From a virus (Duplodnaviria; Caudoviricetes): 64,000 bases of DNA. The notes under the pieces are model-generated. The model ran no database searches. It had not been told where the DNA came from and worked only from the letters and a program-made list of their open reading frames with translations. Where the stretch lies: positions 160,001 to 224,000 of the IMG/VR virus record IMGVR_UViG_3300037484_000235. One strand, given 5' to 3'. The translations under genes and the position numbers were made by a program. Positions within the stretch are counted from its first letter, which is position 1, and the number at the start of each line of letters is the position of its first letter. This document shows positions 8,965 to 57,683 of the stretch, piece after piece.

Positions 8965-9582
8965 ATGGCGTCCCTCAGGTCCAAGGTGATTCGACTAGCA
9001 CACTCCCGGCCGGAGCTTCGCCCGGCTCTTCTTCCTCTGTTGAAGGCGGCTTCCGAAGAGGAGAACGAGAGTGAGGCGCAGGCCAGGGCTATTCTAGAGA
9101 AGAACCTGGAGCCCCTCAAGAGAGGCTTCTGGAAGCCCCCACACAATCTGGCCCTCAACTTTGCACTGATGGGCGCGAACCTGTGGACGTTCACCATCCT
9201 CCCGCTCTTCTGGAAGAAGCAGGGTTATCGGGCTGACCTCAACGGGATTGTGATCCAACCCCTCTGGCGGTCCGTGCAGAGTGGCACCACCCTCGGGTAT
9301 AGGAATACGTCGGGATTTGCTATCCTGACTCCTGATGTTGCCCAGAGCATCGTGAGTCTGATTGGACGGGCGGAGTCAATCCAGGACACAGTCCGGGAAG
9401 AGCTTCGGCTCATCGAGACTCACTTCGGGATTGAGATTCCAAGTCAGATCAAGACGTCCCTTGCATCTACCGACATGCTGAAGGTTGCAAAACGCCGTTG
9501 GCGTGTGGACACCCTCAAGCTCAAGAAGCGCCTCATCCCATTTGATGGCAGCAAGCCTAGAGACCTGGGCTCGTTCGATTGA
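8965..9582 (+). CDS. Leader-bearing putative head cargo protein 1
   Basis: Starts MASLRSKVIRLAHSRPELRPALLPLLKAAS; the rest is unrecognised. Confidence 0.7.
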   Translation: MASLRSKVIRLAHSRPELRPALLPLLKAASEEENESEAQARAILEKNLEPLKRGFWKPPHNLALNFALMGANLWTFTILPLFWKKQGYRADLNGIVIQPLWRSVQSGTTLGYRNTSGFAILTPDVAQSIVSLIGRAESIQDTVREELRLIETHFGIEIPSQIKTSLASTDMLKVAKRRWRVDTLKLKKRLIPFDGSKPRDLGSFD

Positions 9583-9613
9583 ACCAACCTCGCGTCGCAT
9601 AGGACCCTCAAAA

Positions 9614-9937
9614 ATGGCTACTCTCTCAAGCTCTGCTTCTCTTCGACTTGCTGATGATACGAGCAGGACAATGCTCTTGCCCATTTCCACTGACGCTGGT
9701 GCTGCTGCACTCGTTGTGTCGGTGCGTTTCGGTCCATTCGTTCCTGGAGATCCCATCATCGTCGTATCTGACGCGGCGTTTCACATGGTAGCTGGCACCG
9801 TGACGATTGATGCGACCGTCGCAAGTCCAAAATTCCTCGCAGGGCTCTATGCTTTTACGATGCCTGATGATTGCACCCACGTGGCGATGATCCAGTCTGT
9901 AGCTGGTGCTGCGGTTGGCCAAGCATACCGTGGCTGA
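9614..9937 (+). CDS. Small hypothetical beta-rich protein
   Basis: Likely start ATG 9614 after AGGA; 107 aa; directly precedes the SGNH gene. Confidence 0.5.
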   Translation: MATLSSSASLRLADDTSRTMLLPISTDAGAAALVVSVRFGPFVPGDPIIVVSDAAFHMVAGTVTIDATVASPKFLAGLYAFTMPDDCTHVAMIQSVAGAAVGQAYRG

Positions 9938-9949
9938 GCGAAGAGAACC

Positions 9950-11395
9950 ATGCCCTCTTTCATCGACACTGCCCTCCGCCGTTACGCGTCTGGTTTTTCC
10001 GCGCGTAGTTCCGGGAATGGGCGTCGGCCGGGGCGTGGCTCGCGCAGGGGCGGGGGCTGGGGAGTCAATCCTTCGCTGCTCGACGCCCTATTCGGCGACG
10101 GTAGTGGTCCGCGCGTGTTGCACGTCACTGGCGACAGCACGTCCAACGATCCGATCGACTGGGCGTACAAGCTCGGCGTGCTGCTGGCCGCTCACCGGCC
10201 TGACTACGCCCTTCACTACGCCTTGTGGAACGCCGCCTCGCAGCGAATGGGGTCAACGGCGCAACTACAGAACCCGTCTGGTGCCGCGCGAAGCAGCGCT
10301 CTAGGCAGCACGGCGGCAGCGCGATTCAATGCGACGATCAACACCACCGCACTCGTCGATCTCGATGTGCGAGTGAAGCTCGCGGCCACGGACTGGACCC
10401 CGGCCGCGATTGCTGCGGTGTGTGGTGCTGACGCAGCCGACCCAAATCGTTTGTTCTGGTTTCAGATCCTGACGAACGGCAAGCTACGACTCTCGTGGTT
10501 TCCTCTGGGCACCAACGCCTCTGCGATCAATGTCGACTCAACCATAGCGACTGGCGTCGCCGATGGCACTGCCAAAGTCATCCGCGCGACGCTCGACGTT
10601 GACAACGGCGCCGCCGGATACACCGTCACGTTCTACACGAGCGCGACCAACAACTCGTGGGTGCAGCTCGGCGATCCGGTCGTCGGCGGCGCCCCAACGA
10701 ATCTGCACGGAGTCGCAGCGAGTAATCTCACCGTGGGTGGACGAGGCACCACCAACGGCGTGCCCGGCGTGTACTACTGGGCCGAGGTGCGGGACTCCAT
10801 TGACAGCGTGGGGGTGACGGCGCTGTGGGACGCGAGCGACTATGCTGGCAGCGGGACCATTACGGGCGTCGCGGGCGAGACATGGACGCCAACGGGTAGT
10901 CCCGTCACGACAGGTGCCTTTGCACTGCGCGTGATCAACGCGTCGCAAGCTGGCCAGACGTCAGTTGGGTGGGCCACGTCGCCCGCTTTTGAGGGCGGAC
11001 ACCCCGTCGCACCGGCTGTCCATCTCGTGAATCTTGGACACAACGATGGCGCGGCGGTAGACATCGTGAACTATACAGCACTCATCGACGATCTCGTGAC
11101 GCGCTGGCCGTCCGCAACTCGTGTACTCGTGCGGCAAAATGATCAGCCTCCGACGGCCGCAAATCCCACGGAGCACGCGATTCGGCAAGAGTTGATTCGC
11201 TCCCTCGCGGTGTCACGGCGATACGAGCTGCTCGACGCTGATGCCTCGCTGCGATCATACACGGCGGGCGACTGGACGACCGATCTCATGGAGGATTGGG
11301 CGGGCGGCAATGTGCACATGAATGCTGCGGGCGGGACTTGGATCGCAGCCACCTTTGGCGCGCGTTTTGTGGCACCTCGGGTGTTTGTACCATGA
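9950..11395 (+). CDS. SGNH/GDSL hydrolase with an inserted ConA/LamG-like beta domain
   Basis: Block I VTGDSTS, block II NASQAG, block III NLGHND and block V NVH. A beta-sandwich-like segment of about 200 aa lies between blocks I and II. Confidence 0.7.
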   Translation: MPSFIDTALRRYASGFSARSSGNGRRPGRGSRRGGGWGVNPSLLDALFGDGSGPRVLHVTGDSTSNDPIDWAYKLGVLLAAHRPDYALHYALWNAASQRMGSTAQLQNPSGAARSSALGSTAAARFNATINTTALVDLDVRVKLAATDWTPAAIAAVCGADAADPNRLFWFQILTNGKLRLSWFPLGTNASAINVDSTIATGVADGTAKVIRATLDVDNGAAGYTVTFYTSATNNSWVQLGDPVVGGAPTNLHGVAASNLTVGGRGTTNGVPGVYYWAEVRDSIDSVGVTALWDASDYAGSGTITGVAGETWTPTGSPVTTGAFALRVINASQAGQTSVGWATSPAFEGGHPVAPAVHLVNLGHNDGAAVDIVNYTALIDDLVTRWPSATRVLVRQNDQPPTAANPTEHAIRQELIRSLAVSRRYELLDADASLRSYTAGDWTTDLMEDWAGGNVHMNAAGGTWIAATFGARFVAPRVFVP

Positions 11396-11443
11396 CCCCA
11401 CACACGACGATCAACGCCTGACAATTTCAAGGAAACTAGGACC

Positions 11444-12526: not shown

Positions 12527-12580
12527 GTAAGGCAACCTTGGTAGAGTATCCCCGGAGACACAACCTCCGGAGGCTCTGCA

Positions 12581-13750: not shown

Positions 13751-13816
13751 TAGGGCTCGTTCGGTAACTCTCGGATAATGTTGGCAGGTGAGGAGCACCT
13801 TGCTTCTCCAGCCAAC

Positions 13817-14590: not shown

Positions 14591-14597
14591 GGCCCTT

Positions 14598-15170: not shown

Positions 15171-15177
15171 GTACACC

Positions 15178-17214: not shown

Positions 17215-17224
17215 AGTGTTCTGT

Positions 17225-17611: not shown

Positions 17612-17641
17612 CTTCCCGATATTTCTTTGTAGGGGACTCCC

Positions 17642-18400: not shown

Positions 18401-18507
18401 TCGAAGATTGCTCCGTTAGTGGGTTTATGGAACCCACTCTACGGAGAGAGCAACAGTTCTCATTTTTCACCCCGCCAATGCGGCGGGTTCATCTCAGGGA
18501 GATCCTA

Positions 18508-21112: not shown

Positions 21113-21135
21113 CATCTTCATGTAGGGTGTGACCC

Positions 21136-25076: not shown

Positions 25077-28000
25077 ATGTCTCGGATTCTCTTTGAGTTC
25101 TTTGGTGCGGATGAGGTCAAACCCTCTAGTATCGCCAGTGGAGAGGCGTTCGGCACAGCTACAATCGTTTTCGTTGTCCAACCTACTGGAATTGCCAGTG
25201 CAGAGGCATTTGGTGCGGCCTCAGTCGTTCTTGTTGTCCAACCATCTAGCATCCTCAGTGCAGAGGTGTTTGGGGCTGTACAACTCAATCAGACCCTGTA
25301 CTTCACTGGAATTGCCAGTGCAGAGGCATTTGGAACCACTACATTTGGTTCTTTTATCATTCCGCTTGGGATCCCAAGCGGGGAGTCCTTTGGGATTCTC
25401 TCTCTGCAACCGGCCCACATCCAGAGTGCTCCGGCACTCTTTGATGGGTACTTGCTGCGTGGGGCAAAGACCTCTCCCACCAACGCAACCACGAGTGCTC
25501 CGGCAGACTCTGGTGTTGCCAGGGACGTCACTGCGATTGACGCTGCGTTGTATCCGAGTGGCCAGCCTGCGTTGGTTGAAGCGCGTGGAGATCAGTACCG
25601 GTCTGCTGTGCTTCTGGGATCCACTCAGGCGGAGCAAGAGTTCCTTGTTTGGGCTGCGAACACGGGCACCCTCACAACTCTTGAGGGGGCGGCTTGGGCC
25701 GTGTCTGATGGGGTGGGGAGGATCCCACAAGGGTCTATCCCGGTTCTGGATACGACTTCTCCCACAGGACAGTCCACGGACGGGTCCTCTCGTGTCATCG
25801 TCACGGATGATGGTGGTAGAGACATTGCGGGGGTGGTATCTATCACGGTTGTTCGTGGGGACAGCCCGACTGTCTACACACTCACTTTGGTGGGCGGGGA
25901 TTTCTCGTTTGTGGCGGGCTCGGGAGCCCTCAATCTCTTGCCGACGGCAAACACGTTGGCTGCGACGCAGCCCGTCTCGCCCTCAGCCCCTGCGTTCTCC
26001 ACGGTGCGCGGAGATCAAGTCACCGCAATCTCCTACTGGGTAGCAGCGGCCCGCTTCTGGTGGACCAGAAACGACACCTACGCCCACCGCTTTGGGTGGA
26101 ACGGGGCGACCTCCAAATGGGAGCCCTACCGTGGTAGTGCTCCCCACCTGCTCGGGAAGCTCTCATCTGATGGACGGGAGTACACCCTGGACCCGCGCCC
26201 TACGGCCTCCGTAGGGTCTTTGCTTCCAGGATCTAGCCTGGGGGACTCCTACGCTATGGTCCGCCTAGGACCGTCCCCAGATGCCACCAGTTACCCTGTC
26301 GCAAGCCGGACCGTGGGCGATTACTCAGGCATCCTGGTCGTACCGGACACGCTGGCGAACACCGCCTACAACTTCGCGAGCACCTCACCGCCTTTGGCTG
26401 GTGTTCTTGGGGCGGGTGCCGGGAAGATCGTCTGGAACCCGGCCCTCATCCAGACCTACGAGGGGCTGGATGTTTGGTACATCCCACGGACGTTCACCGA
26501 GAAGTCATCGGGTGTCATCGGCACCGTACTCGACGCACAGACCACAGCCCTTTACCTGGCCCCAGTACCTGGACCAGGGGAGCGACCCATCGTGCGCCTT
26601 GGAAATCGGCAACCACTCACGGTGCTGCCGTTCGACACTGAGGCGGCACTATCTGCGGCGACGGTCCTTGAGGGTGAGGTGGGTTTCGCGCTCTCTACGG
26701 GCAGGATCAAGCTTTCCACGGCAGACATCTTGAAGGCGGATCCTGGCACGCGTGCCGTACCAAATTCAAGCTTCGACAAGCTCTACCTGGGGGCAATCGT
26801 TCGGTACGATGGGGTCACCCTCAATCTGTACCCACAGCCCCTCAAGGCTCCGGTGCTTCTCGTCGATGGTGCGGGGCTGCCCGTCTCTAGCTACGACCCT
26901 GCGCAGGAAGTTTTCATCCCCAATGCAGAGACGCTTCCCGCGCTGGGCGCTTCAGGCATTCTTCAAGTGCCCGATGGTTTGGGGAACCCTCCGGTTGTTG
27001 GGGCAGTTGCCCCACGTCCCGGGAACTCCGGCCTGATTCGAAAGCTCTCCTCGGGTATCGGTGATGCGATCCTCTTTACGGACGGGAGGGCTGTCACCAA
27101 GATCACCACGGTTTCGTTCGAAGATGAGCTTCCAACAGACGCATTCCGCGTACCGGGAGACGTTGCCTACGTAGCCTTGGAGAAAAGGGCCGGTACAGGC
27201 TCTCTCGTTATGTTCGGGAGTGTGCCCCGCAAGCAGCTTACGGGAAAGCCTGTCTACTTCCGTCAGGGCGAGTTTGTCCCGTCCGGATACGCGGATAGTG
27301 CCCGGCTCTTCTCCCGTCTACAGGACACGTTCGTTCTGGACGGGACCGAGATTCTCAAGTTCCGTGTGGGTGCGGTATCCGTCACATGGGTAGCAAGTCC
27401 ACTCGGTGCTGGCACATGGACTGCGGCTCAGGTTGCGGCCAACATCAACACCGCAATCACGATCACTGGCGCACCGGGATCGTGCTACGTTCTCTCAGGC
27501 AGGTTGGTGATTGCCCACAACGACCTTGTGAACGGACTCGTGAGCATCGGGTTCGGAACCAATGGGATCTGGGATCTCACGGGGTGCAGGGCACTGGGGT
27601 TCATCCCAGGATGGGTGGCCTCCCCACCAGGGGGAGATCAGAGCGCAACAGACTTGAACTGGCTTCCTGATTACGGTGGGGAGTTGGGTTTCTACCGGAG
27701 TCCCAGGGATATCGATGGATCTCAGGGCCTTCCAGATTACCAGGACAAGTACAGGGTCGATGAACGGACCCTCACTGAGAACATCAATCCAGTCCCCTAT
27801 CAGTTCCTTGACTTCCCACCTCGGGAGGACATCGCGGGTTACGACGAGGGTGTGTTCTTCACGTTGTCCGCTGCGGGTGCACCTGGAATCGCACCGGTGG
27901 CCGATATGCCACTCCTTCCTTGGGTGGACGTGCAGTACCGCTTCGAGGACAAGAAGTTCGCCTGGTTGGCCTCAGGCGGCAGTACAGGGCAGATCCTCTC

Positions 28001-31000
28001 CCCTGTGGCCGGGATCAATCTTGGTGCGGCAGGGATCGTTCCGGACAGCCTCATTGCCCCACTCAATGGGTTTGTGCGTGTCTCCGAAGGCGGCCCTCTT
28101 CAGTACCTGGAGCCGGACGTGGATTTCCTTCTGCCGAACTCCGGTGGAACGGGAGAGGCCACCCTCATCAATCGTGTTGGGGAACTCAAGCTCTCGGGCG
28201 CTCGTGGTCACTTCACGGCTGGGACAAGCACACTCACGGACACGAGCATCAGCTTCGCTGGTGTTTCGGTTGGGGATCGGCTCAAGGTCATCTCGGGGGA
28301 TGCCCTGGGATCGTATCTTGTCTCGTCTGTCCCCAATCCCACTTCGCTGGTGGTGAGCCCCAACTTCCTCGTGGGTGATGCGGGCAAGAACGTCTCTTAC
28401 GAAGTGTACCAGGGCGTTGCTCCGGGTGTTGTGGATGAGGCTCTCGTGGCGGATGTGGTCTTTCAGGACTTCAACCACCTTGCGTCTGAGCCCTTCGAGA
28501 TTCGGGTACTCACTCGTTTGGGGACCGCAGGTGGTTCACTTGCACCTGCCAATGCCTCTAAGGACATTGAGCGTGGGCGCCCCATCTTCGCACGCATCTC
28601 CCAGGTGGGTATAGACCTCCCACTCACGTTGCTCACGCAGTCCGATTTGGGCGTGGTGGCAAATGGCTCTTTGAGCGTTCCCACAGTGGGGGCCCGCTTC
28701 ACATCGGGCGCATTCAATCTGAGGATCGGAACCCAGGAGTTCACCCAGGGTATCGAGCTTCTCCCAGTGGCCGCCTTCTCCCCGAGCCCCGCGAACATCG
28801 AGTACATCAACACGGGCATCAATGCTGGTGACTTGAAGTTCAGCGCTGCGCTACTTGATGAGTACCAGTCTGCAACTGTTCTCTATGTCGAGACTCTCCT
28901 TCCGGCTGCGGACCTACTCTCTGGTCAGGCGGAAATCGATCCAGACTCTGGGTCCCTCTCACTCTCCCAAATCGATCTCACGGCGGGGTCTGGCAGTCCT
29001 GTCTACTTTGTGTCCCAACTTTCCACAGAGGGCACCACAGACGTAACTGCAAATCCCATCCTTGGGTCGTTCACGTTCCTAGCCAATCCGATCCAAGCAT
29101 CCCAGCTTGTGGAGGCGGTCTACTACAGGGCTGTCCCCAACTCCGGGGATCTGTTCCTAGATGCCGATGGGAACCCCGTCCAGATGCGGGAGTTTCTCCC
29201 TCTCTACATTCGGGCGGAAGTGGCAACTCGGATTTCGAGTCAGCTCTATGCGTTCAATCCAACGGGACGCACTGTTGACCAGATCGTGGATCCTGTTGTC
29301 TACACGGGATCTAGGCAGCAGACTTATGGCGCCCCTAGTGGGTGTTCGATCGACTTCAATCGGAATACGATTTCGATCAACTCCGAAGTCTCCGAAGCCA
29401 CGAACGTCACCATCTCGTACGCGGTGTATGAAGCCTTTGGAGGGGAGACTTCCTATAGCGTGTCGCTGCCACCTGTGTGGCGCCCACCGTTCCGAATCGA
29501 CAAGAATCAGACCCAGTTCCTTCTGGATACGAACCGGACAAGTGACCTGCTTGCGGGCAAGGTTCTGCGCGTGGGGTCATTCACCACCTATGTCCGAAGT
29601 GCTACCTACGACGTCATCAGTGACACAACTCTGGTCACAGTCTTCCCGTCTTCGGTCTACGGGGCTGGGTCGCTCAATCCAGGAGTAAATGCACTCTCTC
29701 TTCTCACTGATCGAACGGTCGCAGTTACAGTAGACCCCTTCGGTGTGCCCGTATCTGTGCCTGGGTCGGATCCAGGCTTCCTGCCAACCATGGCGCAGGC
29801 ATTCACCCTGGCTTCAACCCCACACTTTGAGACGGTCACTAAGGGTCAGGTCGAGATCAAGTTCGATGGAGATCTCACCCAGTATGCCGTTGCAGGGCAT
29901 CTCCTCGAACTGTTCGGGAAGCCCTTCGCAATCGTGAAGTCCGTCTTCTCTCAGGACGGCCGGGTCACAACGGTATCCGTCAGTTCTCCCTTCCCAGAAG
30001 ATTTCGTGTGGTCCTCTGGCCTGTTGGATACAGCAGCCCGAATCTCGGTACGCCCAATCTATCCAGAGGGGGCAACCCAGTTCTTGGGGGCCGGTGGGTT
30101 CCTTTCCAGTGAGCCTTACGAAGTCGTGCTCTTCGGAGAAACTGACGACTCCGGGAACACACTCCCAGGACGAACTCTCGTATCGGGTCAGGACTACAAC
30201 TTCCTCGAAGGTAACGGGAGTCTGGCATTCATTCAGCCGCATCAGGCGGGGTTCGCCGCCGGTCAGAAGCTTCTTTTTGCCCGGACTGACGTACAACAGA
30301 TTGGCCCCAAGATGTCTCTGGGGCACGTTCAGTACCCACGAGTTTCTTCGAGCTTCCTGTACGTGGACCCGCCTTCCGCTCAGAATGGGCGTGAGGGTGG
30401 TGTTTTGCAGGGCACGTACACCTTTGAGAGTCCCGACGCGTTCTACGTGCGCGCGGTTCCCCTACTCACGTACGTGGGTGAGGTGTCCCTGGATATCCAG
30501 AAGGAAGCCACTGCCCAAGACCCTGCTAAGGGCCCGACGTATTCGAGTGGTGCGAGCAAGCTCAACTCTGACTATGGGCGTATGGGGCTGGTATCCGAGA
30601 GCCAGAATCTTGTGGACCGGGACCGGGCTGCCCGCACGTTCCTCGGCTTCTACAATGCAGTTGTCTCGTCGTTCGAACAGATCGAAGAGACGCTCAATGG
30701 GGCCTTTGTTGGTGAGCGTGATGGTAAGCTCCGCCTCTACGTAGGCAAGGGAGACCCATGGGTTCCGCCCGGCTACGAGGATGAGATCACAGGTGCTCTG
30801 AATCCTCGTGTGCTCTGGTTCGATGCTTGGATGTCCGCCCGCCAGGGACTTCCAACGATCCGCCTCATCGCAACAGACCCCGTCACGGATCCCCTCAACA
30901 CCACCACGGACGCAAACGGCCGTCCTGTCGGATCGTTCCAGGACTCGTCGGGATTCCACGCACTCACAGACTACCAGGACATTCTCATCAAGAACGATGT

Positions 31001-34000: not shown

Positions 34001-36371
34001 CGCCGCGTTCCCAGCGGCCGGGCGTGTATACGTGATCTTGGACGCAACCGCTGTGGGGCTTGCGTCCAGTGCGGTCTCTGCGGCATATGCCTCTCTGAAT
34101 CTCGGGGGCAACACCTTCGTCAATCTCTCTGGATACCAAGATGGTGTCGGGGCTGCGATCACACTTGCTCAGTTCCAGACAGCAGTTACAGCGGGCTTGT
34201 TTGTCTCGGGCATGACGGTTGTGCCCGTATCCCCATATAATGATGATGTGCCGGTGAACTTGCCCGGGTACACATTCTGGCCAATACCCGTTCCGGGAAC
34301 CGAGCACTACTTTGGGTTCCGCACGGTCACCGCGACTCGGACTGGATCCGTTACCTATGATGCAGCTGCCCTCAATCTTGTGGGCGTAGCACCGGCTCCC
34401 GGCCAGATCTCAGCCTACTCGAAGGTAAAAGTGCCCTCCACTTCGTTCATACAGTTGAACGAGCCCGTCTACGACAACATCCCAGGTGCAATGGATCTGA
34501 CAGAGTTCAACTGGGCAGGCATTCATGGCGCGGGCCCCGCGTGCATGCTGCCCGGGGACATTTGGGATCTTGAGTACCACGCACGGCACGGAATATTTAT
34601 CGAGCCCTCGTTCCCGGTATCGGGCAACGACCTTGGCCGTGTAACTGCAAATGTCGTGGATGCGACGCACACTTTAACAGCCCCTGAAGTGGGTTCCCGA
34701 GACGCCGCAATCTACCTCCTCGGGGGCCCCCCTGGCGGTTCGTACTTGGAGTGGGCACAAGTCGAAGTGCGTCGTATCCGCCGGTTTCACCCACTGCTCA
34801 ATGAGCTGGTGAGCGCGTTCCTGAGACTCCGGTTCGTTTACGAGATTCGTCGGGGCATTGTCCAGACGTTTACCCTGTTTGGTAACACGGGGGTTTTGGT
34901 CGCCGAGCCTGTAGACACCCAGCTCGTCCCTTCTCCCCTGGTTGGGGGCACTGCAACACAAATGGGAGACTTCACGGATACCGATATGGGTATTCGGTCT
35001 GGGGATCAGGTCCGGTTCCTCGATTCTCTTGGGCGGGTGGTTTCTGAAGCGGATATCTTGGTTGTCGAGACGGACGGTAAGACACTCACTCTCTCGAAGA
35101 ACGCACTCACTCTAGTCTCTCCGGGAACTAGATTTGAAGTGTACCTGCGAACGGCGCCTATTCCCCATGAGCAGTCTTGCGCAGAACTCCTCGAACTCGC
35201 GACCGATCGTGTGCTCCTTGACCGGAAGGCAGACCTGGTCACGCAAGACGGTGGCAAGGTTGACTACATCGCAGACGCAAATCAGCAGACCGCCTACGAC
35301 CAATCGATCAACGTCCTATCGGACACTGACGGGGGCATCGACTTCACCTCCCTTGGGATCTTGCCGGGAGACATACTGGTCATCGACCCAGAGGGGGCTT
35401 TGCGCGGCCCCACAGGCTCGCCTGTGCCCCCCGAGAAGGGTTCCCGACCGTTTGGGGATGATGGCGTGCTTCCTCGCGGAGGGCCCGTCTACGTGCCAGG
35501 AAGCCCGTCCCGTACGGACGACAACCGTGGCTACTACAAGGTGGCGAGCGTGTCCCCGACTGAGATCGGGGTTGTGCCCCTTGGTGGGACACTTGCTGGA
35601 AATCGCGGGACCCCGGACGTGATTTTTGATTCCGCCTACGCGGTATACCCTACGGTGCACGGTTCCAATCTCTCGGGGGCTGGGGATGGCATCGAGGGAC
35701 AGATGGATCTGCGGCCTACGGCGTTTGCGGACGTGTCCAACTCGTTCCAAAGTGATTGGCTCTCGGTTGCCCCGTTCTCTTACAAGGTGATCCGCCCTAG
35801 CTTGTTCCTTACGGAAGAGACAGTAGAGCTGATCCTATCTACCCGTGAGCGAATGCTGTCCTGGATTGAGGAACTACAGGGGCTCTTTGAAGCTAACAAG
35901 AGCGGAACGTACTTCGAGTTCCAGCGTGATGAGCACATCTCGGATCTTGGAGATCCTTCGGATCCAGCCGATGGCCTGGGTGTTCTGTTTGATGCGTACA
36001 TCGCGGGTCTTGAGGGCCGTGTGCTCGTCAGCCCGTTCGCGAACACCTCGGATTGCCTGTCGGTTTTGGATCGTCGGTTCTGGGGCTTGGACTTCAGGCT
36101 CGATTACCTTCAGCCGCCGTTTGCTCCGCTCGACCCCCCATACAGCGACTTCGTGAATGGCGTCGGTCGCCCCGTGCTTCCAGACCGCATCGAAGAGGCT
36201 CTTCAACAGAGGGACCAACTTCGGGATTCCCGCTGGGCTTGGCTCTGCAACAGAGTGGACCGCGTGACCGGCACACTCGAAGCTATCCGGCGTTTTGAGC
36301 GGGAGATCCCTCGTCGCCGTGCTGAGCAAGAACGACTCCTTACGATGGTCAAGGGAACCAAGACGCCATGA
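25077..36371 (+). CDS. Giant (3764 aa) virion structural protein, probably baseplate/tail-associated
   Basis: Uninterrupted 11.3-kb ORF in the structural module, with N-terminal PxGIxSxExFG repeats and beta-rich composition. No catalytic motif was recognised. Confidence 0.7.
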   Translation: MSRILFEFFGADEVKPSSIASGEAFGTATIVFVVQPTGIASAEAFGAASVVLVVQPSSILSAEVFGAVQLNQTLYFTGIASAEAFGTTTFGSFIIPLGIPSGESFGILSLQPAHIQSAPALFDGYLLRGAKTSPTNATTSAPADSGVARDVTAIDAALYPSGQPALVEARGDQYRSAVLLGSTQAEQEFLVWAANTGTLTTLEGAAWAVSDGVGRIPQGSIPVLDTTSPTGQSTDGSSRVIVTDDGGRDIAGVVSITVVRGDSPTVYTLTLVGGDFSFVAGSGALNLLPTANTLAATQPVSPSAPAFSTVRGDQVTAISYWVAAARFWWTRNDTYAHRFGWNGATSKWEPYRGSAPHLLGKLSSDGREYTLDPRPTASVGSLLPGSSLGDSYAMVRLGPSPDATSYPVASRTVGDYSGILVVPDTLANTAYNFASTSPPLAGVLGAGAGKIVWNPALIQTYEGLDVWYIPRTFTEKSSGVIGTVLDAQTTALYLAPVPGPGERPIVRLGNRQPLTVLPFDTEAALSAATVLEGEVGFALSTGRIKLSTADILKADPGTRAVPNSSFDKLYLGAIVRYDGVTLNLYPQPLKAPVLLVDGAGLPVSSYDPAQEVFIPNAETLPALGASGILQVPDGLGNPPVVGAVAPRPGNSGLIRKLSSGIGDAILFTDGRAVTKITTVSFEDELPTDAFRVPGDVAYVALEKRAGTGSLVMFGSVPRKQLTGKPVYFRQGEFVPSGYADSARLFSRLQDTFVLDGTEILKFRVGAVSVTWVASPLGAGTWTAAQVAANINTAITITGAPGSCYVLSGRLVIAHNDLVNGLVSIGFGTNGIWDLTGCRALGFIPGWVASPPGGDQSATDLNWLPDYGGELGFYRSPRDIDGSQGLPDYQDKYRVDERTLTENINPVPYQFLDFPPREDIAGYDEGVFFTLSAAGAPGIAPVADMPLLPWVDVQYRFEDKKFAWLASGGSTGQILSPVAGINLGAAGIVPDSLIAPLNGFVRVSEGGPLQYLEPDVDFLLPNSGGTGEATLINRVGELKLSGARGHFTAGTSTLTDTSISFAGVSVGDRLKVISGDALGSYLVSSVPNPTSLVVSPNFLVGDAGKNVSYEVYQGVAPGVVDEALVADVVFQDFNHLASEPFEIRVLTRLGTAGGSLAPANASKDIERGRPIFARISQVGIDLPLTLLTQSDLGVVANGSLSVPTVGARFTSGAFNLRIGTQEFTQGIELLPVAAFSPSPANIEYINTGINAGDLKFSAALLDEYQSATVLYVETLLPAADLLSGQAEIDPDSGSLSLSQIDLTAGSGSPVYFVSQLSTEGTTDVTANPILGSFTFLANPIQASQLVEAVYYRAVPNSGDLFLDADGNPVQMREFLPLYIRAEVATRISSQLYAFNPTGRTVDQIVDPVVYTGSRQQTYGAPSGCSIDFNRNTISINSEVSEATNVTISYAVYEAFGGETSYSVSLPPVWRPPFRIDKNQTQFLLDTNRTSDLLAGKVLRVGSFTTYVRSATYDVISDTTLVTVFPSSVYGAGSLNPGVNALSLLTDRTVAVTVDPFGVPVSVPGSDPGFLPTMAQAFTLASTPHFETVTKGQVEIKFDGDLTQYAVAGHLLELFGKPFAIVKSVFSQDGRVTTVSVSSPFPEDFVWSSGLLDTAARISVRPIYPEGATQFLGAGGFLSSEPYEVVLFGETDDSGNTLPGRTLVSGQDYNFLEGNGSLAFIQPHQAGFAAGQKLLFARTDVQQIGPKMSLGHVQYPRVSSSFLYVDPPSAQNGREGGVLQGTYTFESPDAFYVRAVPLLTYVGEVSLDIQKEATAQDPAKGPTYSSGASKLNSDYGRMGLVSESQNLVDRDRAARTFLGFYNAVVSSFEQIEETLNGAFVGERDGKLRLYVGKGDPWVPPGYEDEITGALNPRVLWFDAWMSARQGLPTIRLIATDPVTDPLNTTTDANGRPVGSFQDSSGFHALTDYQDILIKNDVDDVVLVTRNNVQRKIAGFIHFKVTATGLFSQLSEANPFSRLFPERTSGFTTLGPGLDGDETLGNPGVYSAGKFGLDPLGFLFGSSFSSRSTTGTVIGTLENPVLGTIQNILGVKARDRLARARIWSYSATGFPEVDVLSTGLPSFIATPLPLVDFPILSDTGLPDTSQLASQSITPLPTGFNDLLTGDPDLHTPPFASGAQLALGYPKGNATELGYADPTTIIPVGASFRYAGVFVDQILKGCVITLKSKNTAGADVPVTDPTLLLALTGAMSGDPVNPERGDTLFVVPGTGSVLPVTADPPTIAQLQSFTAALPGYRTGTDFNYTPRTGEITDATLPSFSDPTIFGLKEITGQRPPSPLSTIEAQISFQNGSRLPTRIPALDGDKTLDSGDYSLPYYGSTLNELELLGETATLITGFIRADSPDPAPVAVPQVLPYTTEAVFPDETLGDAGVVSTNSALLATLSTFEDLSRKTTSGAYPPPPGHAGVGDVEPYDLVLVQAPNTATPGPAGFPAGATGIHSIADISLGAPNQVDLPRFTTAVSEGTSLNYDIGNAIAWVDFPAYASGVVVKEDTNLVPTETTFDIVSVGAANIVLDDGLGGGLLPIPVGGLNDVFTLNGKGSQLIIKLINKATGQFVPGSIVTVEKDASGPNILACTFLVSGDGTAPTIPVAAGGFYFLPDKIVIKTTAPDVFFDFVPFDPVAVPPPGTQLTDGFHDFALSVHCLGSSTGSVGRDRLTFNDHIDFRSALPRGFTHPANIAGSLMECQLSTFRFESTVYNTVTALMTTRANFANDILAINAGVAFTFPARSWITPSVNGVGTFALGLGSLRALGFEGQGNVPIEATGITFTAIPSSRQDDLGPIYNSLMVVGEDLGAGAPFRFTNENGFLPLVTYEGDLSQIQSGDIAVVKGFVDPTLFPMVLDGSGKVGTYLIRAAVAPTVSTPGHQLDLTMTLGSTGDWMDFTFPQVVNFDPLGPDLTVTSLLPLQPLQDVTGGIIPASAAFPAAGRVYVILDATAVGLASSAVSAAYASLNLGGNTFVNLSGYQDGVGAAITLAQFQTAVTAGLFVSGMTVVPVSPYNDDVPVNLPGYTFWPIPVPGTEHYFGFRTVTATRTGSVTYDAAALNLVGVAPAPGQISAYSKVKVPSTSFIQLNEPVYDNIPGAMDLTEFNWAGIHGAGPACMLPGDIWDLEYHARHGIFIEPSFPVSGNDLGRVTANVVDATHTLTAPEVGSRDAAIYLLGGPPGGSYLEWAQVEVRRIRRFHPLLNELVSAFLRLRFVYEIRRGIVQTFTLFGNTGVLVAEPVDTQLVPSPLVGGTATQMGDFTDTDMGIRSGDQVRFLDSLGRVVSEADILVVETDGKTLTLSKNALTLVSPGTRFEVYLRTAPIPHEQSCAELLELATDRVLLDRKADLVTQDGGKVDYIADANQQTAYDQSINVLSDTDGGIDFTSLGILPGDILVIDPEGALRGPTGSPVPPEKGSRPFGDDGVLPRGGPVYVPGSPSRTDDNRGYYKVASVSPTEIGVVPLGGTLAGNRGTPDVIFDSAYAVYPTVHGSNLSGAGDGIEGQMDLRPTAFADVSNSFQSDWLSVAPFSYKVIRPSLFLTEETVELILSTRERMLSWIEELQGLFEANKSGTYFEFQRDEHISDLGDPSDPADGLGVLFDAYIAGLEGRVLVSPFANTSDCLSVLDRRFWGLDFRLDYLQPPFAPLDPPYSDFVNGVGRPVLPDRIEEALQQRDQLRDSRWAWLCNRVDRVTGTLEAIRRFEREIPRRRAEQERLLTMVKGTKTP

Positions 36372-41678: not shown

Positions 41679-42749
41679 TTATCGATTTGGATCGTAGGGT
41701 CTTCCGGATGGATCCGTGATGTAGAGGTCGTCATCCTCGGCATCTGTAATCCGGAATCCAGGATCTAACCCAAGGTCTTTTTCGACCGAAGCCTGCGTCT
41801 CAAGCATCTCCAATGCTTTGTTGATGGCGCGGGCAGCTGGAGGCATGCGGGAACCGCGCAGGGCGTACATGGACACCCTTCGGAGTAAGTTCGCGAAGGC
41901 GATGGCCTCATCCTCTGGGAAGCCAGAGTTCCGGCTTGCTACGACCAGTTCCTTGGCTGACTCAAGGATTTGGGTGGTGTAGAACGTCGTTCGCGAAGCG
42001 CGGCGTTGACCGTGAGGTGAACTGTGTTCGTCTAGTTCACGCAGGACTTCCCAGGGTCGCTTGGGTGTCACGCGTGGATCGTGTGCGTCAAGTGCCAAGG
42101 CCGCCTTGTAGAGAAGGCTGGCAGCCCCACGATTGCCGCCGGACTTGGCGTAGGCCGCACAGGTCAAGAGTACCTGGTGGAAGGCTTCGTCAATGTCTTC
42201 CGTCGAGCTGCGGGCCCCATGGTGCGCGTCCAGAAGGTCTTGAACGTTGGCCTTGAGCAGAAGCGCCTTCGACGCCTGATTTGCCCGCTTGGCCACGGAC
42301 GCCTTCTTGTCGTCCTTCTTGCCCTCTTCGACCTTCTTTTCGCAGTTGTCTCGCATCCCGCCCTCGGGAAGCTTCTCGCAACCGGCGGTCTTGTCAACAT
42401 CCTTGGCCTTCTTGTCGCAAACAGCGCAACGTCCAGAAGACACGTTTCCGAAGGCTCTCGCCTTTGAGACAGCGGACGGCTTGAACTTCTTGCCGCACAG
42501 GGCGACGTTGTTCACGACGTTGGATCCGTCCTCGAATACTGCGTTCTTGAAGGCGTGGGATTCTCCGTCACGTTGGTTGCCAGGACGCGCCCAGGCAACC
42601 TCGATTTTCTCCGGCGTCTCCCCGTGCATGACGGGTTCCCAGAATGGTGCTACCGCAGCTTCCTTGAGAAGGGGGAGCAAGTCAGCCCGGAGAGCCGGGT
42701 TCTGGTGGGCAAGGCGAATGAGGCGTGAGCGGAGGGCTTGGTCTGACAT
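41679..42749 (-). CDS. Leader-bearing putative head cargo protein 2 (multidomain)
   Basis: Starts MSDQALRSRLIRLAHQNPALRADLLPLLKEAA. Contains a Cys/His cluster and segments separated by KTAG, KKAS and RRAS. Confidence 0.75.
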   Translation of the reverse strand: MSDQALRSRLIRLAHQNPALRADLLPLLKEAAVAPFWEPVMHGETPEKIEVAWARPGNQRDGESHAFKNAVFEDGSNVVNNVALCGKKFKPSAVSKARAFGNVSSGRCAVCDKKAKDVDKTAGCEKLPEGGMRDNCEKKVEEGKKDDKKASVAKRANQASKALLLKANVQDLLDAHHGARSSTEDIDEAFHQVLLTCAAYAKSGGNRGAASLLYKAALALDAHDPRVTPKRPWEVLRELDEHSSPHGQRRASRTTFYTTQILESAKELVVASRNSGFPEDEAIAFANLLRRVSMYALRGSRMPPAARAINKALEMLETQASVEKDLGLDPGFRITDAEDDDLYITDPSGRPYDPNR

Positions 42750-45712: not shown

Positions 45713-46341
45713 ACGAAGTCGAGTTGACTTGTGTTGGGGACACAGCCCACATCCCTGATTTAGGATTGAAGATGGTCCGAGGATCCCAGTCTTTCATCAC
45801 CCTCACAGCTCTTGCCAACTCCCGCGATCTGGTTGAGGCTAGGAAATTCGGGCTTGTCACGGTGCGGGTGATCAAGGCTCAGGTAATCAAGAGGGGTTCA
45901 CCCACCGTGTCAGTCAAACACCCCAATAATCGCCAGACGATTTTTCTCCCAGCTTACCAACCGTCAACACCTGTGAATCCACCCCCCAACATTCCGGATC
46001 CACGGGACATACCCAATAACCAGATTGCCGAGTTGATCCGGGAGATTCGTGGTCTTCGGGGGGACATACAAAAACGCCCACAGGAAGTCCTGAGTGGGCA
46101 AATGGTAGGGGCCATCTCCGCAGCTATCCGAGATGCTCTACAGGGTCTCCAACTGGGTGCAATCTCTGGTTCTCAGGTGAGGGGGCCAATTGATCCTGAA
46201 GACATGTTCATTCCTAGTGGTATCGTTACAGGAGTGAAGGCAGAGATCACAACACTGAATGAGACATCTGAGAGTACCTCTGGCCTGGACGATGCTCACA
46301 GCGCCTTGAAGAAGGCTCGAAGAGATCGCCAGGAACCATGA
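45709..46341 (+). CDS. Hypothetical protein
   Basis: ATGA overlaps on both sides; Pro-rich linker. Confidence 0.6.
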   Translation: MNEVELTCVGDTAHIPDLGLKMVRGSQSFITLTALANSRDLVEARKFGLVTVRVIKAQVIKRGSPTVSVKHPNNRQTIFLPAYQPSTPVNPPPNIPDPRDIPNNQIAELIREIRGLRGDIQKRPQEVLSGQMVGAISAAIRDALQGLQLGAISGSQVRGPIDPEDMFIPSGIVTGVKAEITTLNETSESTSGLDDAHSALKKARRDRQEP

Positions 46342-47432
46342 CAGATATTGCCGTGACTACGCCTTTGGGCGTTGAGCAAACTGATATACTGACCCTGATG
46401 AAGGAGACGCCTGTGGCCAAGGACGAATCGACAAAGACTCAAGAATCCCGTGGTGTGGGGCTTGATTGCGGAACCATGAATCTAGTTTCTGCGCGCCGTA
46501 CCCCAAAGGGAATCGAAACCCGAAGGATGCGGGACGCCTTCCTAGATCTTCCGAGCGAGTCAAAGAAGATGCTCAAGCTCTCTGGGGTGTCCTATGTGGA
46601 CCGGGGAGATGAGATTCTCATCCTCGGAGATGCAGCTCTTGACATGGCCAATGTTTTTGGCAGGGAGGCTCGTCGCCCGCTTTCCGGTGGCCTTGTCTCC
46701 GCAACGGAGTCAGATTCCCTGGAGGTGCTCGGTCTGCTTGTGCAGAACGTCCTGGGGGCACCTAAAGAGAAGGGTGAGCACTGTTACTTCTCTGTCCCGG
46801 CGGCTCCGATTGATGTGGTAGGACGGGATATTGTCTACCACAAGGGAATCTTCGACAGAATCGTGTCCGAGTGTGGGTACACACCGCACTCCGGAAACGA
46901 GGCCATGGCCGTGATCTATGCGGAGTCCGCCAAGGATGGGTTCTCTGGGGTGGCGCTATCTTTCGGGAGTGGAATGTCCAATGTGGCGCTATCGGTCGGG
47001 ACGATTGAGGGACTCTCCTTTTCGGTTGGCCGTGGGGGCGACTGGATCGATTCTGGTGCGTCGAAATCTGTGGGGTCCACACAGGCTCGAATGTGTTCCA
47101 CCAAGGAGAAGGGCTTTGACCTCAATATCCCGGAAAATCGGGACCAAGAGGCACTGGCCTTCTACTACAAGAACCTGATCGAGTACGTTTTGGATCAGAT
47201 TGCTCTCCAGTTCAAGACGATCGAAGGGAAGTTCTCGCTTCCCAAGCCTATTCCAATCATCGTCTCTGGGGGCACGTCACTTGCTGGAGGGTTCCTGGAG
47301 TTCTTCACGAAGGTATTTGAGAAGAAGCGCAAGAAGTTCCCTATCAATGTGAGTGAGATACGGGCTGCAAGTGACCCACTCAACGCCGTCGCACATGGCC
47401 TACTGATTCAGGCACTCCAGGAGTACGAGTGA
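46338..47432 (+). CDS. Actin-fold ATPase (MreB/ParM/FtsA superfamily)
   Basis: All five actin/Hsp70 motifs are present in order: GLDCGTMN, NEAMAV, SFGSGMSNV, IVSGGTS and DPLNAVAHG. Confidence 0.85.
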   Translation: MTDIAVTTPLGVEQTDILTLMKETPVAKDESTKTQESRGVGLDCGTMNLVSARRTPKGIETRRMRDAFLDLPSESKKMLKLSGVSYVDRGDEILILGDAALDMANVFGREARRPLSGGLVSATESDSLEVLGLLVQNVLGAPKEKGEHCYFSVPAAPIDVVGRDIVYHKGIFDRIVSECGYTPHSGNEAMAVIYAESAKDGFSGVALSFGSGMSNVALSVGTIEGLSFSVGRGGDWIDSGASKSVGSTQARMCSTKEKGFDLNIPENRDQEALAFYYKNLIEYVLDQIALQFKTIEGKFSLPKPIPIIVSGGTSLAGGFLEFFTKVFEKKRKKFPINVSEIRAASDPLNAVAHGLLIQALQEYE

Positions 47433-48241: not shown

Positions 48242-48248
48242 TAGTTTC

Positions 48249-49370: not shown

Positions 49371-49415
49371 TCCGTTGGCCCCTCTATACCTATCCCTTGT
49401 TGAAGAGAGGCCACC

Positions 49416-49892
49416 ATTCCTGTTTTCAGATACCAGTGCGACTGCGGATTGAACTTCTCGACTCGTGTCGCTTCGGCAGCGAGTCCGGTGAAGTGCTCCT
49501 GCGGGTCATTGGCGAAACAAGATCTCCCCCGATCTTTTTCGGTGGGCACGTCTGTTCCTACGAATGGACTCTCTGCCCCATCAACAGGCCTATCGTCACA
49601 TGACTATGTGTTTGACAAGGTTGTGGGAGAAGATGCCAAGGGCAAGTGGGACAAGATTGCGGCCCGCCACAAGGACAAGGTTCGGCTTCTTGAGCAGACT
49701 GGGGCCACAGGATTCGATCTCACCAAGCAGCATGACGGTTCCTACGCCATCATGACCCCCCAGCAGCGGGCTGCCTCTGAACGGACACGGGCATTCCACT
49801 TCAAGATGGATGCTGCGGGTCCGGCTCAAGCCCGAAAGAAGCAGATTGAGGCAACAAGTTTGGTCCCTAAGGATCACAAAAGCCATGTCTGA
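49416..49892 (+). CDS. Second FmdB-family zinc-ribbon protein with apparent ATT start
   Basis: GAGAGG-N5-ATT CCT GTT TTC AGA TAC CAG TGC GAC TGC reads (M)PVFRYQCDC...CSCG. An in-frame TGA at 49401 precludes an upstream ATG. Confidence 0.65.
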   Translation: MPVFRYQCDCGLNFSTRVASAASPVKCSCGSLAKQDLPRSFSVGTSVPTNGLSAPSTGLSSHDYVFDKVVGEDAKGKWDKIAARHKDKVRLLEQTGATGFDLTKQHDGSYAIMTPQQRAASERTRAFHFKMDAAGPAQARKKQIEATSLVPKDHKSHV

Positions 49893-50574
49893 ACTTCGAA
49901 GTAAGCTCATTCGTTTGGCCAACTCTAACCCAGAGTTGCGATCCACATTGCTACCTTTGCTGAAGGAGGGCGCCGCCGAGAAGACCGGGTCCTCTGTCAC
50001 CTATGCGATGGCTGTGAGGGACGCTTCTCTGGAGTTGATTGGAGCGTCAAGAGGAAGTGATGTTACAGACGAGGGGCAGATGCTCATTCTGCTTCTTGCT
50101 GCATGCTCCACATTCGTCAAGAAGGGCAGGATTGGAAGCAATCAGACCGCTATCCTCATCAAAAGGGCAGCCGACTCGTTGTACAAGGAGATGTTCGGGG
50201 AGAGTCCTGATGCGGTGTCACCAGTTGTTGCCGCTCCGACCCCCAGGGATCTGTTCTTTGGTTCGGGCAAGCTAAGTGGGTATGCCCTAGAAGTCATCCG
50301 TGGGATGCAGATGTTGGATGGTGACATCCACACCAAAGGCAAAGTAAATCCCAATGGCTCGGTGGAGTTCATGCATGGTGGTGTCTACGGCACAGTTCTG
50401 GTTGAGATGGGATTGTCCAATGATGCCCGTGCGTGGGTATCTGTGTACACGACTGGGCGTCGGCCCGCTTCCATCATGTTTCCCTCAACCTTCGATGTGA
50501 AGAGCGTGGCTGGGTCAAAGTTTCCCAGGATGCTCCTGAACAAGCTCTCTGACCTGAGTGCTTGGGCTGAGTAA
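49885..50574 (+). CDS. Leader-bearing putative head cargo protein 3
   Basis: Starts MSELRSKLIRLANSNPELRSTLLPLLKEGAA. Confidence 0.75.
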   Translation: MSELRSKLIRLANSNPELRSTLLPLLKEGAAEKTGSSVTYAMAVRDASLELIGASRGSDVTDEGQMLILLLAACSTFVKKGRIGSNQTAILIKRAADSLYKEMFGESPDAVSPVVAAPTPRDLFFGSGKLSGYALEVIRGMQMLDGDIHTKGKVNPNGSVEFMHGGVYGTVLVEMGLSNDARAWVSVYTTGRRPASIMFPSTFDVKSVAGSKFPRMLLNKLSDLSAWAE

Positions 50575-50699
50575 GATTTCCCTCCCGGTGCCTTAGGGCC
50601 CCGTGGTCCACAAACATACCTAACATCCTGCGCTTTCATTTTCTCTCCTTTATTTAGGAGAGGTTGATTCACATCAGTTCTCTCAGGAGCGCGCGAACC

Positions 50700-56027: not shown

Positions 56028-56053
56028 CCTGTGTAGGGACCGGATGAAAGCTG

Positions 56054-56099
56054 AACTAGAGCGGAGTCGGGGACAAAATCCTCAGGCTCCGTTCTAGTT
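56054..56099 (+). terminator. Long hairpin after the sheath gene
   Basis: AACTAGAGCGGAGTC ... GGCTCCGTTCTAGTT inverted repeat. Confidence 0.55.
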
Positions 56100-56130
56100 T
56101 CTAGCCTATCTCACACGTCTGGAAAGAGCT

Positions 56131-57378
56131 ATGTCCAATCCACTCTCCAAACTCGTCCGGTTGGCACAGTCAAATCCAGAGCTTGCCACCATCTTGAAGC
56201 CAGAGCCATTGGCTTCTCGGGTTGCGGACGCAGCTAGGAAGGCGGGGATGCTGGGCCGCACTTCTCTTGAGGCATTCGTCTTCAAGAGGTTTCCGCCTGA
56301 CAACAAGATGAAGGGTGGGGGGCGGCTGATGGTGATGCTTACGGGCAACACCGCAACAGCAGTTGGTGTCCCCAACTACACCACTAGGTACTTGGACCAG
56401 CTTGACGACGATCAGCTCAAGGCCCTCGTGGATGCGGTAGATCCTCACGGACATGGTTATCGCCTGGCGGGCTACGGGCGAGGCTACGGATCGTCCTACA
56501 AGGGTGACCCCAGGTGGATGGAAGCCAAGTACCCTGGCGTGGACTCCAAAGGCAACTCTTTCCGTAAGGGAGAGGAAGTCCTCTACTGGCCTTCGACAAA
56601 GACCTTCATGACGGGCCCTGAAGCCAAGGCGGCTTGGCAGAAGTTCCTGTCCGAGAAGGGCGACGAAGAGGGCAATCCATACGCTCGTGCGGCTTCTGCT
56701 AAGCGGGTTGTTGCCACTTTTCTTCCCACATGTTCGGATGGCACCCCCGCAGAGTATGATGATGGGTTAGACGCTTATGCGTGTCCATCGACTGGGGAGG
56801 TTGGACCAAACGGACCTGCCTACCAAAAGTGTGCGGCTCACGGTGCGGTTTCTGTCAGGCGGGTAGCGGGGGAAATTGACCACTCAATCGCTCGCCGACA
56901 GGCAGCATTGGTGTTGAAGGGGCTCAGGCCCTCTACTCGTGCAGGAGTTCTCAAGGAACTTCTTGCAAGGATCACGGGGGATGCTGTCCTCATGGATTAT
57001 CTCTACCGGGAGACCGTCTCTGGTTCCTACGCAGGTAAAGACGGCAAGCTGAATTACCACATGATGGGGGACCTGTTTGGGGGGCCCGTCGCACAGTGGA
57101 AAGAGCGCAATGAGATTGAGGACAATCCCGCCTATGAAGAGTTGTCTCTTGACCCCAAGCTTGCAGCAGGAATTGAGAAGGCACTCAAAACCTACCGCCC
57201 ACAGAACCCAACTATCTCCAAGGTTGACTCCATCGACTTTGATAGTGTGAGGATGAAAATCCGCTTCGATCTGACAGACAAGATCAAGCGCCTTCAGGCC
57301 GGAAACAGCACGGACCCCGCTGGAGACGCAGCGGAAATCGCCCGCATCTTCGAAGAACTAGCAAGGATGTTCAAGTGA
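56131..57378 (+). CDS. Leader-bearing putative head cargo protein 4 (multidomain)
   Basis: Starts MSNPLSKLVRLAQSNPELATIL. Small domains are separated by RKAG, RLAG, RAAS and RVAG. Confidence 0.75.
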   Translation: MSNPLSKLVRLAQSNPELATILKPEPLASRVADAARKAGMLGRTSLEAFVFKRFPPDNKMKGGGRLMVMLTGNTATAVGVPNYTTRYLDQLDDDQLKALVDAVDPHGHGYRLAGYGRGYGSSYKGDPRWMEAKYPGVDSKGNSFRKGEEVLYWPSTKTFMTGPEAKAAWQKFLSEKGDEEGNPYARAASAKRVVATFLPTCSDGTPAEYDDGLDAYACPSTGEVGPNGPAYQKCAAHGAVSVRRVAGEIDHSIARRQAALVLKGLRPSTRAGVLKELLARITGDAVLMDYLYRETVSGSYAGKDGKLNYHMMGDLFGGPVAQWKERNEIEDNPAYEELSLDPKLAAGIEKALKTYRPQNPTISKVDSIDFDSVRMKIRFDLTDKIKRLQAGNSTDPAGDAAEIARIFEELARMFK

Positions 57379-57683
57379 CTACTCTCCGCAACAAAGTCAT
57401 CCGCCTCGCTCATGCCAAGCCTGAGCTTCGGGCTCAGTTGCTTCCTTTGCTCAAGGAAGCTGCCTATACCTATGAGAGCTACTCGAAGGGGCTCAATCTT
57501 CGTGGTGAGATCCGCAAGCTAGAGGCACTCGCTAGCACCCCCTTGGAAGCTTACCTCCCCAGCGAAGACTCACTCATGGACAAGCCCGGCGGGTACGACA
57601 AGGAGTTTCGTAAGCTGAAGACCCAGTTGGAAAAGATCATCGCTCTTCGAGAGCAGTATGCGAAGGACGCCGGAAACCTCTGA
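57375..57683 (+). CDS. Leader-bearing putative head cargo protein 5
   Basis: GTG start overlapping the upstream stop; MTTLRNKVIRLAHAKPELRAQLLPLLKEAA. Confidence 0.75.
   Translation: MTTLRNKVIRLAHAKPELRAQLLPLLKEAAYTYESYSKGLNLRGEIRKLEALASTPLEAYLPSEDSLMDKPGGYDKEFRKLKTQLEKIIALREQYAKDAGNL

Follow-up and report, generated by a model that had tools for sequence, protein, structure and literature searches.

Small peptide elements that bring proteins into a protein shell are known from phages and from cells. The capsid targeting sequence (CTS) of phage T4 is about 10 residues long, and the T4 prohead protease gp21 has the site rule L/I-x-E. The P22 scaffolding protein binds coat through a C-terminal helix-turn-helix. 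Encapsulin cargo-loading peptides and microcompartment encapsulation peptides are short and terminal, sit on a flexible linker and direct unrelated enzymes into a protein shell, which in encapsulins has the HK97 fold; shell-organising proteins carry repeated short motifs on disordered linkers. The T4 internal proteins share only the CTS, which places them in the scaffolding core (PMC3012670). The HK97 protease is encapsidated via its C-terminal tail (Duda et al. 2013, in the account given by PMC12749128), and PMC7411985 and PMC10052503 describe giant phages of the phiKZ and SPN3US type as loading many head proteins that are trimmed by the prohead protease. ADP-ribosyltransferase (ART) and RelA/SpoT domains are among the classes described for phage proteins whose packaging into the head and injection are known or predicted, T4 Alt being a packaged ART (PMC5512222). 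Here we describe a 27-residue peptide tag that recurs on otherwise unrelated proteins of an uncultured huge phage. It was analysed in a window of 64,000 nucleotides (nt), bases 160001-224000 of the 252,521-bp IMG/VR virus record IMGVR_UViG_3300037484_000235 (CheckV completeness 57%), and in the related contigs in which it also occurs. We propose, with a probability of roughly one half, that the tag is a capsid-targeting label that is removed proteolytically by the head protease.

A hidden Markov model (HMM) of the leader was run on all 252,521 bp of the record, translated in six frames. It returned ten matches with E values from 7e-19 to 1.4e-9, then the copy at window position 56131 (E 0.002), with noise beginning at E 0.098. 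The window holds four full copies and one degenerate copy; they are listed here with the copies elsewhere in the genome and with a second short motif shared by some tagged proteins (ORF, open reading frame; aa, amino acids).

Window 8965..9051, + strand: tag copy 1, N-terminus of the 205-aa ORF 8965-9582; E 1.1e-16; junction K-A-A after LLPLL
Window 42657..42749, - strand: tag copy 2, N-terminus of the 356-aa ORF 41679-42749 (P0002); E 1.8e-16; junction K-E-A
Window 49885..49971, + strand: tag copy 3, N-terminus of the 229-aa ORF 49885-50574; E 2.4e-17; metagenome orthologue P0003
Window 56131..56196, + strand: degenerate tag, N-terminus of the 415-aa ORF 56131-57378; E 0.002, 16.7 bits
Window 57375..57461, + strand: tag copy 4, N-terminus of the 102-aa ORF 57375-57683; E 6.4e-18; junction K-E-A
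Genome 24805 (-), 24856 (+), 72058 (+), 93969 (+), 95666 (+) and 152515 (+): tag copies outside the window, found with the leader HMM
Window 42318..42386, - strand: 23-aa Cys motif (AGCEKLPEGGMRDNC...), inside P0002 after K-T-A; a second portable module

The preliminary description of this DNA had reported a shared leader on five dispersed ORFs of the window, and all five translate as claimed, the 56131 copy being a degenerate one that retains helix 1 and has lost helix 2. The frame at 49885 also has an in-frame ATG at 49810, yet its orthologue P0003 begins at the tag; the gene at 57375 has a GTG start codon, and its beginning overlaps the stop codon of the 56131 gene before it. Outside the window, the tags at genome 24805 (-) and 24856 (+) form a divergent pair with 50 bp between them. 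At genome 93969-96305 (L003:470-1570 and L003:1573-2805) an N-tagged 367-aa gene stands directly before a 411-aa gene whose start overlaps the 367-aa stop codon, and the 411-aa ORF carries the 95666 copy internally, at about residue 201, without a start codon. In some internal copies of metagenome proteins the Met directly before the tag is still kept, which suggests that these tags became internal by fusion of neighbouring tagged genes. No common promoter element was found upstream of the tagged genes.

The repeat is conserved as a peptide. Over the 24-residue core of ten copies, mean identity is 72% at the amino-acid level and 63% at the nucleotide level, and 66% of the identically conserved residues are encoded by differing codons, as the preliminary description had maintained from the codon differences it saw. 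Because the codons differ and nucleotide identity falls below amino-acid identity, the repeat is maintained by selection on the peptide and not by recent DNA copying. The 23-aa Cys motif behaves likewise: the protein sequence is 100% identical in three tagged proteins of the genome (the other two sites are at genome 25195 (+) and 72142 (+)), while 8-11 of 69 nt differ, all of them synonymously. The dispersal of copies on both strands would suit repeats that merely result from recent duplication of DNA or from a mobile cassette and have no protein-level function, but this reading is refuted by the codon data of the tag together with the synonymous-only differences in the Cys motif, and the tag has thousands of diverged carriers; we assign it practically no probability. 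The Cys motif is preceded by K-x-A and is present in 17 of the top 150 metagenome matches. A further open frame of 1,267 aa at genome ~78197 (+), outside the window, holds two copies of a mini-motif, P-T-x-N-M-S-x-E-D-x-x-x-W...K-D-E-F-K. Metagenome proteins with several tags contain the P-T-x-N-M-S mini-motif as well, an indication that the vocabulary of shared short motifs is wider.

The tag has the consensus L-R-S-x-L-I-R-L-A-H-x-x-P-E-L-R-x-x-L-L-P-L-L within its 27 residues. In an alignment of 15 tags L4, R5, I9, L11, A12, P16, R19, P24 and L26 are invariant and R10 is nearly so, and the LLPLL core is near-invariant over 339 copies. AlphaFold2 (AF2) modelling of a 63-aa protein with two tags gave helices H6-16/H18-29 and H37-50/H52-62 (mean local confidence, pLDDT, 79.8; global confidence, pTM, 0.59). 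In a model of a tagged ART-like protein the tag formed helices H4-14/H16-27 at a pLDDT of ~56-63, below that of most of the cargo. The fold of the tag is thus predicted to be helix-kink-helix, with two helices per copy; a Foldseek search of the two-tag mini-protein against the PDB gave no match at E<=0.001. Read from the sequence, the tag is net basic with a hydrophobic face. LLPLL is the longest uncharged hydrophobic run in the 15-tag alignment, charges occur throughout and no RR motif is present. A Sec or Tat signal would need a hydrophobic core of 7 or more residues, or a twin-arginine motif, ahead of an A-x-A site; with no long hydrophobic stretch and no twin-arginine motif, the tag is neither. 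A basic amphipathic helix that binds membrane or nucleic acid as a generic anchor, with no specific protein recognition, would share these general properties and could likewise sit at either terminus or in tandem, as membrane-targeting helices do. Nine invariant positions among 15 sequences, two prolines and two arginines among them, and the near-invariant LLPLL are far more sequence-specific than generic amphipathic anchors, and no DNA-binding family matched the tag. We therefore consider a generic anchor very improbable.

The preliminary description had predicted that an HMM of the leader would match only at the N-termini of varied ORFs in this clade. The restriction to the clade held (see below) and the strict N-terminal position did not. 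In a sample unselected for position (n=137), 103 copies (75%) have Met at the start of the tag, another 13 could use an alternative start, and the remaining 21 lie internally or at the C-terminus, which puts the share of such copies at 15-25%. Two copies occur in only about 8% of the tagged frames of the same sample. The tag is followed by a recurrent junction. Of 90 N-tagged proteins, 83 (92%) have a [KR]-x-[AG] motif that begins no more than 6 residues beyond LLPLL, compared with 12% of background 8-residue windows. Its distance from the tag is variable, which suggests that the junction is a separate element and not part of the tag fold. Among internal and C-terminal copies, 71% have [KR]-x-[AG] just upstream, typically as G-K-K-A followed by S-L-R. 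The T4 L/I-x-E cleavage rule was considered for this position and rejected: Glu stands at profile position 28 in only ~19% of the 339 copies, against the 92% for [KR]-x-[AG] in N-tagged proteins.

Copy number raises a further explanation, in which the tag is a self-associating helical hairpin. Two hairpins would form a four-helix bundle and co-assemble the tagged proteins, and multi-tag proteins with charged linkers would cross-link a condensate or core. The top metagenome matches carry 2-5 separately significant copies in N-terminal, internal and C-terminal positions, often one per end, and some mini-proteins, for example those of 63 and 86 aa, are little more than two tags; the four helices modelled for the 63-aa protein would fit such a bundle. 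However, AF2 will pack any pair of amphipathic hairpins that share a chain. The low share of two-copy frames comes from a sample unselected for copy number, the invariant Arg and Pro residues suggest recognition of a fixed partner, and self-association does not explain the junction motif. This explanation, which is compatible with head targeting, seems to us quite unlikely.

Searched against 1.84 billion representative proteins, the tag profile matched 3,705 clusters at E<=1e-3 and 659 at E<=1e-10. IMG/VR holds 83 confirmed tag stretches on contigs of up to 497 kb, and whole records carry 11 (485 kb, 92% complete), 20 (497 kb), 17, 6 and 12 tags. The capsid protein was 87-96% identical to that of the window in five of five large tag-bearing records tested, and the capsid family has >2,000 close homologues. 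Among 185,579 cellular species genomes only two contigs matched; both are homologous to this phage (a terminase, for instance, is 75% identical) and are therefore phage contigs binned into metagenome-assembled genomes. The tag is restricted to one clade of uncultured huge phages of 250-500 kb. Among GenBank phage records the tag occurs in a single one, a 485-kb genome from an uncultured phage, and 20 kb of the window, compared with GenBank phages by megablast, gave no match. The tag was said at the outset not to be a described family, and this is borne out: nothing exceeded the cut-off in Pfam, NCBIfam or annotated PHROGs, with only sub-threshold touches to DUF6193, and searches of literature text for the motif strings returned irrelevant matches only. 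A match to a known non-virion domain, which would have spoken against a head-loading role, was looked for in Pfam, NCBIfam and PHROGs and not found.

The cargo behind the tag is diverse. The sequences after the leader had been described as largely unrelated, and the 91 cargo regions from this genome and related contigs indeed fall into 66 unrelated BLAST clusters, most of them without a family; one exception is the shared 23-aa Cys motif. Recognisable domains are ART-PolyVal (two), DUF5710 (two), Pentapeptide and WGR, and further RelA_SpoT (two), WGR, LRV, two DUFs and GNAT. In PHROGs, 42 tagged ORFs from relatives gave matches to 13 undescribed families and one marginal 'tail fiber protein' match (E 6e-4). 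The other tagged proteins of this genome have no significant family in Pfam, PHROGs or NCBIfam, and ESM Atlas searches with three of the window's cargos returned nothing usable. Domains of the polyvalent repertoire (ART-PolyVal, DUF5710, RelA_SpoT, WGR, GNAT) thus occur on a minority of cargos; portal and terminase genes are present in this genome.

The ART-like cargo has five orthologues with 54-71% identity, in which an H, a Y-G-x-G-I-F-L motif and an E are invariant. The best PDB matches to its AF2 model are nearly all PARP/tankyrase catalytic domains and are weak (E 0.03-0.14, probability up to 0.9); a profile of the cargo matched no PDB sequence. Three of the five orthologues carry the present tag and two carry a different short leader containing (R/K)(V/I)AxR(Y/H):

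Related records, L097:1402-2181 and L098:1402-2217: ART-like orthologues with the alternative leader

The occurrence of two leader types on the same ART-like cargo implies that leaders are exchangeable, and the (R/K)(V/I)AxR(Y/H) leader looks like an alternative address tag.

Tagged genes are found within head-gene blocks. In this genome the head module extends from upstream of the window into it.

Genome 148081-149922: terminase
Genome 150512-152212: portal
Genome 152515, + strand: tagged 99-aa ORF, directly after the portal gene
Genome 153591-156965 (L087:13591-16962): 1,124-aa protein in the head block with HAD_SAK_1 (1.3e-22) and a eukaryotic-type topoisomerase I core (4.6e-27)
Genome 158327-159844 (L087:18327-19844): head maturation protease, 505 aa (phrog_18299, 2e-14)
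Window 30..1139, + strand: probable scaffold, 369 aa, very acidic and low-complexity, between the protease and capsid genes
Window 2035..2913, + strand: major capsid protein, 292 aa, HK97 type (phrog_2522, 4e-50)

After the tagged 99-aa ORF come a 259-aa ORF, the HAD-topoisomerase IB fusion, two small ORFs and the protease, and a 226-aa ORF stands between the scaffold-like gene and the capsid gene. The 485-kb relative has the order protease, scaffold, tagged 134-aa ORF, 228-aa ORF, capsid protein. The other tagged genes of the window sit among tail-like or virion genes, including a tail fibre match at 9950-11395 and a minor-tail match in a 3,764-aa ORF.

The junction motif is shared with head proteins that do not carry the tag. 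Compared with composition-matched shuffles, [KR]xA[AGSC] occurs 11 times against 2.0 expected in the scaffold and 7 against 2.0 in the protease, and two small ORFs of the head region and a number of tagged proteins show an excess too (in total 66 against 23.8 expected); this enrichment is only suggestive because shuffling does not keep local composition. By the same comparison the motif is not enriched in the terminase, the portal or the topoisomerase fusion. The capsid protein has a conserved K-T-A at residues 19-21. The scaffold, protease, portal, terminase and capsid protein were each without any stretch resembling the tag and were thereby rejected as tag carriers. In six clade members the protease C-terminal tail contains a conserved helix, E-A-R-T-L-I-R-L-A-x-L-L, and LIRLA is also found in helix 1 of the tag. 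Homology of this tail to the tag is unsupported (7 columns only, hhalign probability 6.7%); we keep the LIRLA likeness as a lead because the HK97 protease is enclosed via its C-terminal tail. In two related records (G026 and G002; L102 and L103) the protease matches are split into 2-3 separated pieces within stop-free frames of 947 and 1,371 aa, which suggests large in-frame insertions, possibly inteins.

It is established that the tag is a portable peptide module, confined to phages, under strong selection and flanked by a junction motif. From the classes of cargo, the positions in head-gene blocks, the junction motif common to probable protease substrates and the swapping of leaders, we infer the capsid-targeting function. 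The tag would bind one conserved phage-encoded receptor in the assembling prohead, either the scaffold core or the inner capsid surface, so that tagged proteins are enclosed in the prohead. The head maturation protease (genome 158327-159844) would then cut at the [K/R]-x-A junctions, and the same protease would process the scaffold and remove ~21 residues from the start of the capsid protein. Cargo released in this way would leave the head together with the DNA; in relatives it comprises ADP-ribosyltransferase-like, RelA/SpoT, GNAT and pentapeptide proteins, among others. Proteins in which low-complexity linkers join several tags would be multivalent core components or polyproteins that are cut into pieces. 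The preliminary description had proposed a head-loading address tag; a portable, address-like module on interchangeable, unrelated cargo is what we find, with the head as its proposed destination.

Not all of the evidence points to the capsid. The strong conservation, the many unrelated cargos and the clade restriction would suit any single conserved receptor, so the tag could instead be a sorting or docking signal for another phage-built destination (a replication or protection compartment, a cytoskeletal element or a hub protein), with the tagged proteins acting in the infected cell and not in the virion. About half of the genome's tagged genes lie outside the structural region. The window also encodes an actin-like protein, unusual for a phage, at 46338-47432 (+; Pfam Volactin PF25216, E 2.6e-67). 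Complex prediction between the tag alignment and the 292-aa capsid protein scored 0.00, the tool's no-answer value and evidence neither way. On the other hand, the recognisable cargo classes resemble injected effectors and are unlike replication or transcription enzymes, tagged genes lie within blocks of head genes, the junction motif recurs in the scaffold and protease, and no shell or import gene was identified, though no systematic search was made. Another destination is therefore possible and, in our view, unlikely.

Several further points count against the capsid-targeting proposal itself. Its receptor is a postulate, and all carriers are uncultured. Five of the 11 tag copies of the genome are far from structural genes, and about a quarter of copies overall are internal, C-terminal or tandem, positions that a simple cleaved N-terminal leader does not need. 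At the junction, K27 and A29 belong to the search profile, and the [KR]xA enrichment may partly reflect local K/A-rich composition. The T4-type protease Peptidase_S77 (PF03420) has no match in the 57%-complete record, in which a different protease is present. As to cargo, the window's five have no recognisable domain in Pfam, PHROGs or NCBIfam, and the ART match in Pfam spans only profile positions 3-49 of 140.

Set beside the known systems, the proposed capsid-targeting label follows the logic of the T4 CTS. As in IPI-III and Alt, a short N-terminal leader is the sole common element, a prohead-protease site would come next, and the cargo is diverse and includes ART; several of the T4 proteins have anti-defence or host-modifying roles (PMC3012670, PMC5512222). 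In contrast to the CTS, to which it has no sequence relation, the tag is ~27 residues long, has a predicted two-helix fold, also occurs in internal, C-terminal and tandem positions, and would be paired with another cleavage rule. By analogy, the tag may work like the T4 signal, and it is not a member of that family. By binding coat or scaffold, the P22 helix-turn-helix and the HK97 protease tail, both small, basic and helical, suffice to bring a protein into the procapsid, and the tag, with R5 and R19 invariant and R10 nearly so, is by AF2 a small basic two-helix element as well. It differs from the P22 case in that it is not at the C-terminus of this phage's scaffold, the scaffold and protease being without it. 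The ejection and inner-body propeptides of phiKZ and SPN3US are not known to be one conserved portable motif, and those phages belong to another clade with another capsid protein and protease. Polyvalent and MuF-anchored effectors overlap in repertoire (ART, RelA/SpoT) and share the predicted capsid-carried, injected route (PMC5512222). Unlike those effectors, which are fused to each other or to a MuF/DarA-type anchor, the cargo here is a separate small protein with the 27-aa tag in the anchor's place, and the tagged effector architectures seen consist of the tag plus a single domain. The encapsulin and microcompartment peptides are cellular, have other motifs and are not removed by proteolysis, whereas the present tag belongs to a tailed phage with portal and terminase genes.

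Further features lie near the tagged and head genes of the window. A phage tmRNA (transfer-messenger RNA) is encoded at 8034-8418 (+; Rfam RF00023, 94.3 bits, full-length match), ~550 bp upstream of the first tagged gene; ARAGORN gives its tag peptide as ANDNSYALTAIAA. The 864-aa ORF at 3032-5626 (+), directly after the capsid gene, has LAGLIDADG homing endonuclease, DNA methyltransferase and HNH matches, and the 485-kb relative likewise has a LAGLIDADG-like gene (from L032:5362 onward) behind its capsid gene. In the 3,764-aa ORF at 25077-36371 (+), only the first ~100 residues match the minor tail family phrog_13352 (4.7e-18).

Taken at its widest, and tentatively, at somewhat below even odds, the tag and its [K/R]-x-A junction may constitute a general code in two parts, one for sorting and one for processing, in a clade of 250-500 kb phages that is abundant worldwide. 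It would mark the whole head-loaded, injected set (6-20 proteins per genome and thousands of metagenome families), with the alternative leader or leaders and the mini-motifs forming a modular vocabulary of the head interior. Should its destination lie elsewhere than in the capsid, the tag would serve as a linear signal that sorts proteins to another phage-built structure. As a capsid-targeting label, it would supply a testable cleavage rule for an uncharacterised head protease, and foreign proteins could perhaps be loaded into HK97-fold shells with it, as a natural peptide of compact size. Nearly all huge phages are uncultured, and a function has yet to be assigned to most of their genes; the tag would be a first functional grouping for thousands of families, collecting proteins that share one destination (most likely the interior of the capsid and, after that, the host cell), and it would point to candidate anti-defence and host-takeover effectors. 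If the two-part code is true, the injected effector repertoire of uncultured huge phages could be readable directly from sequence.

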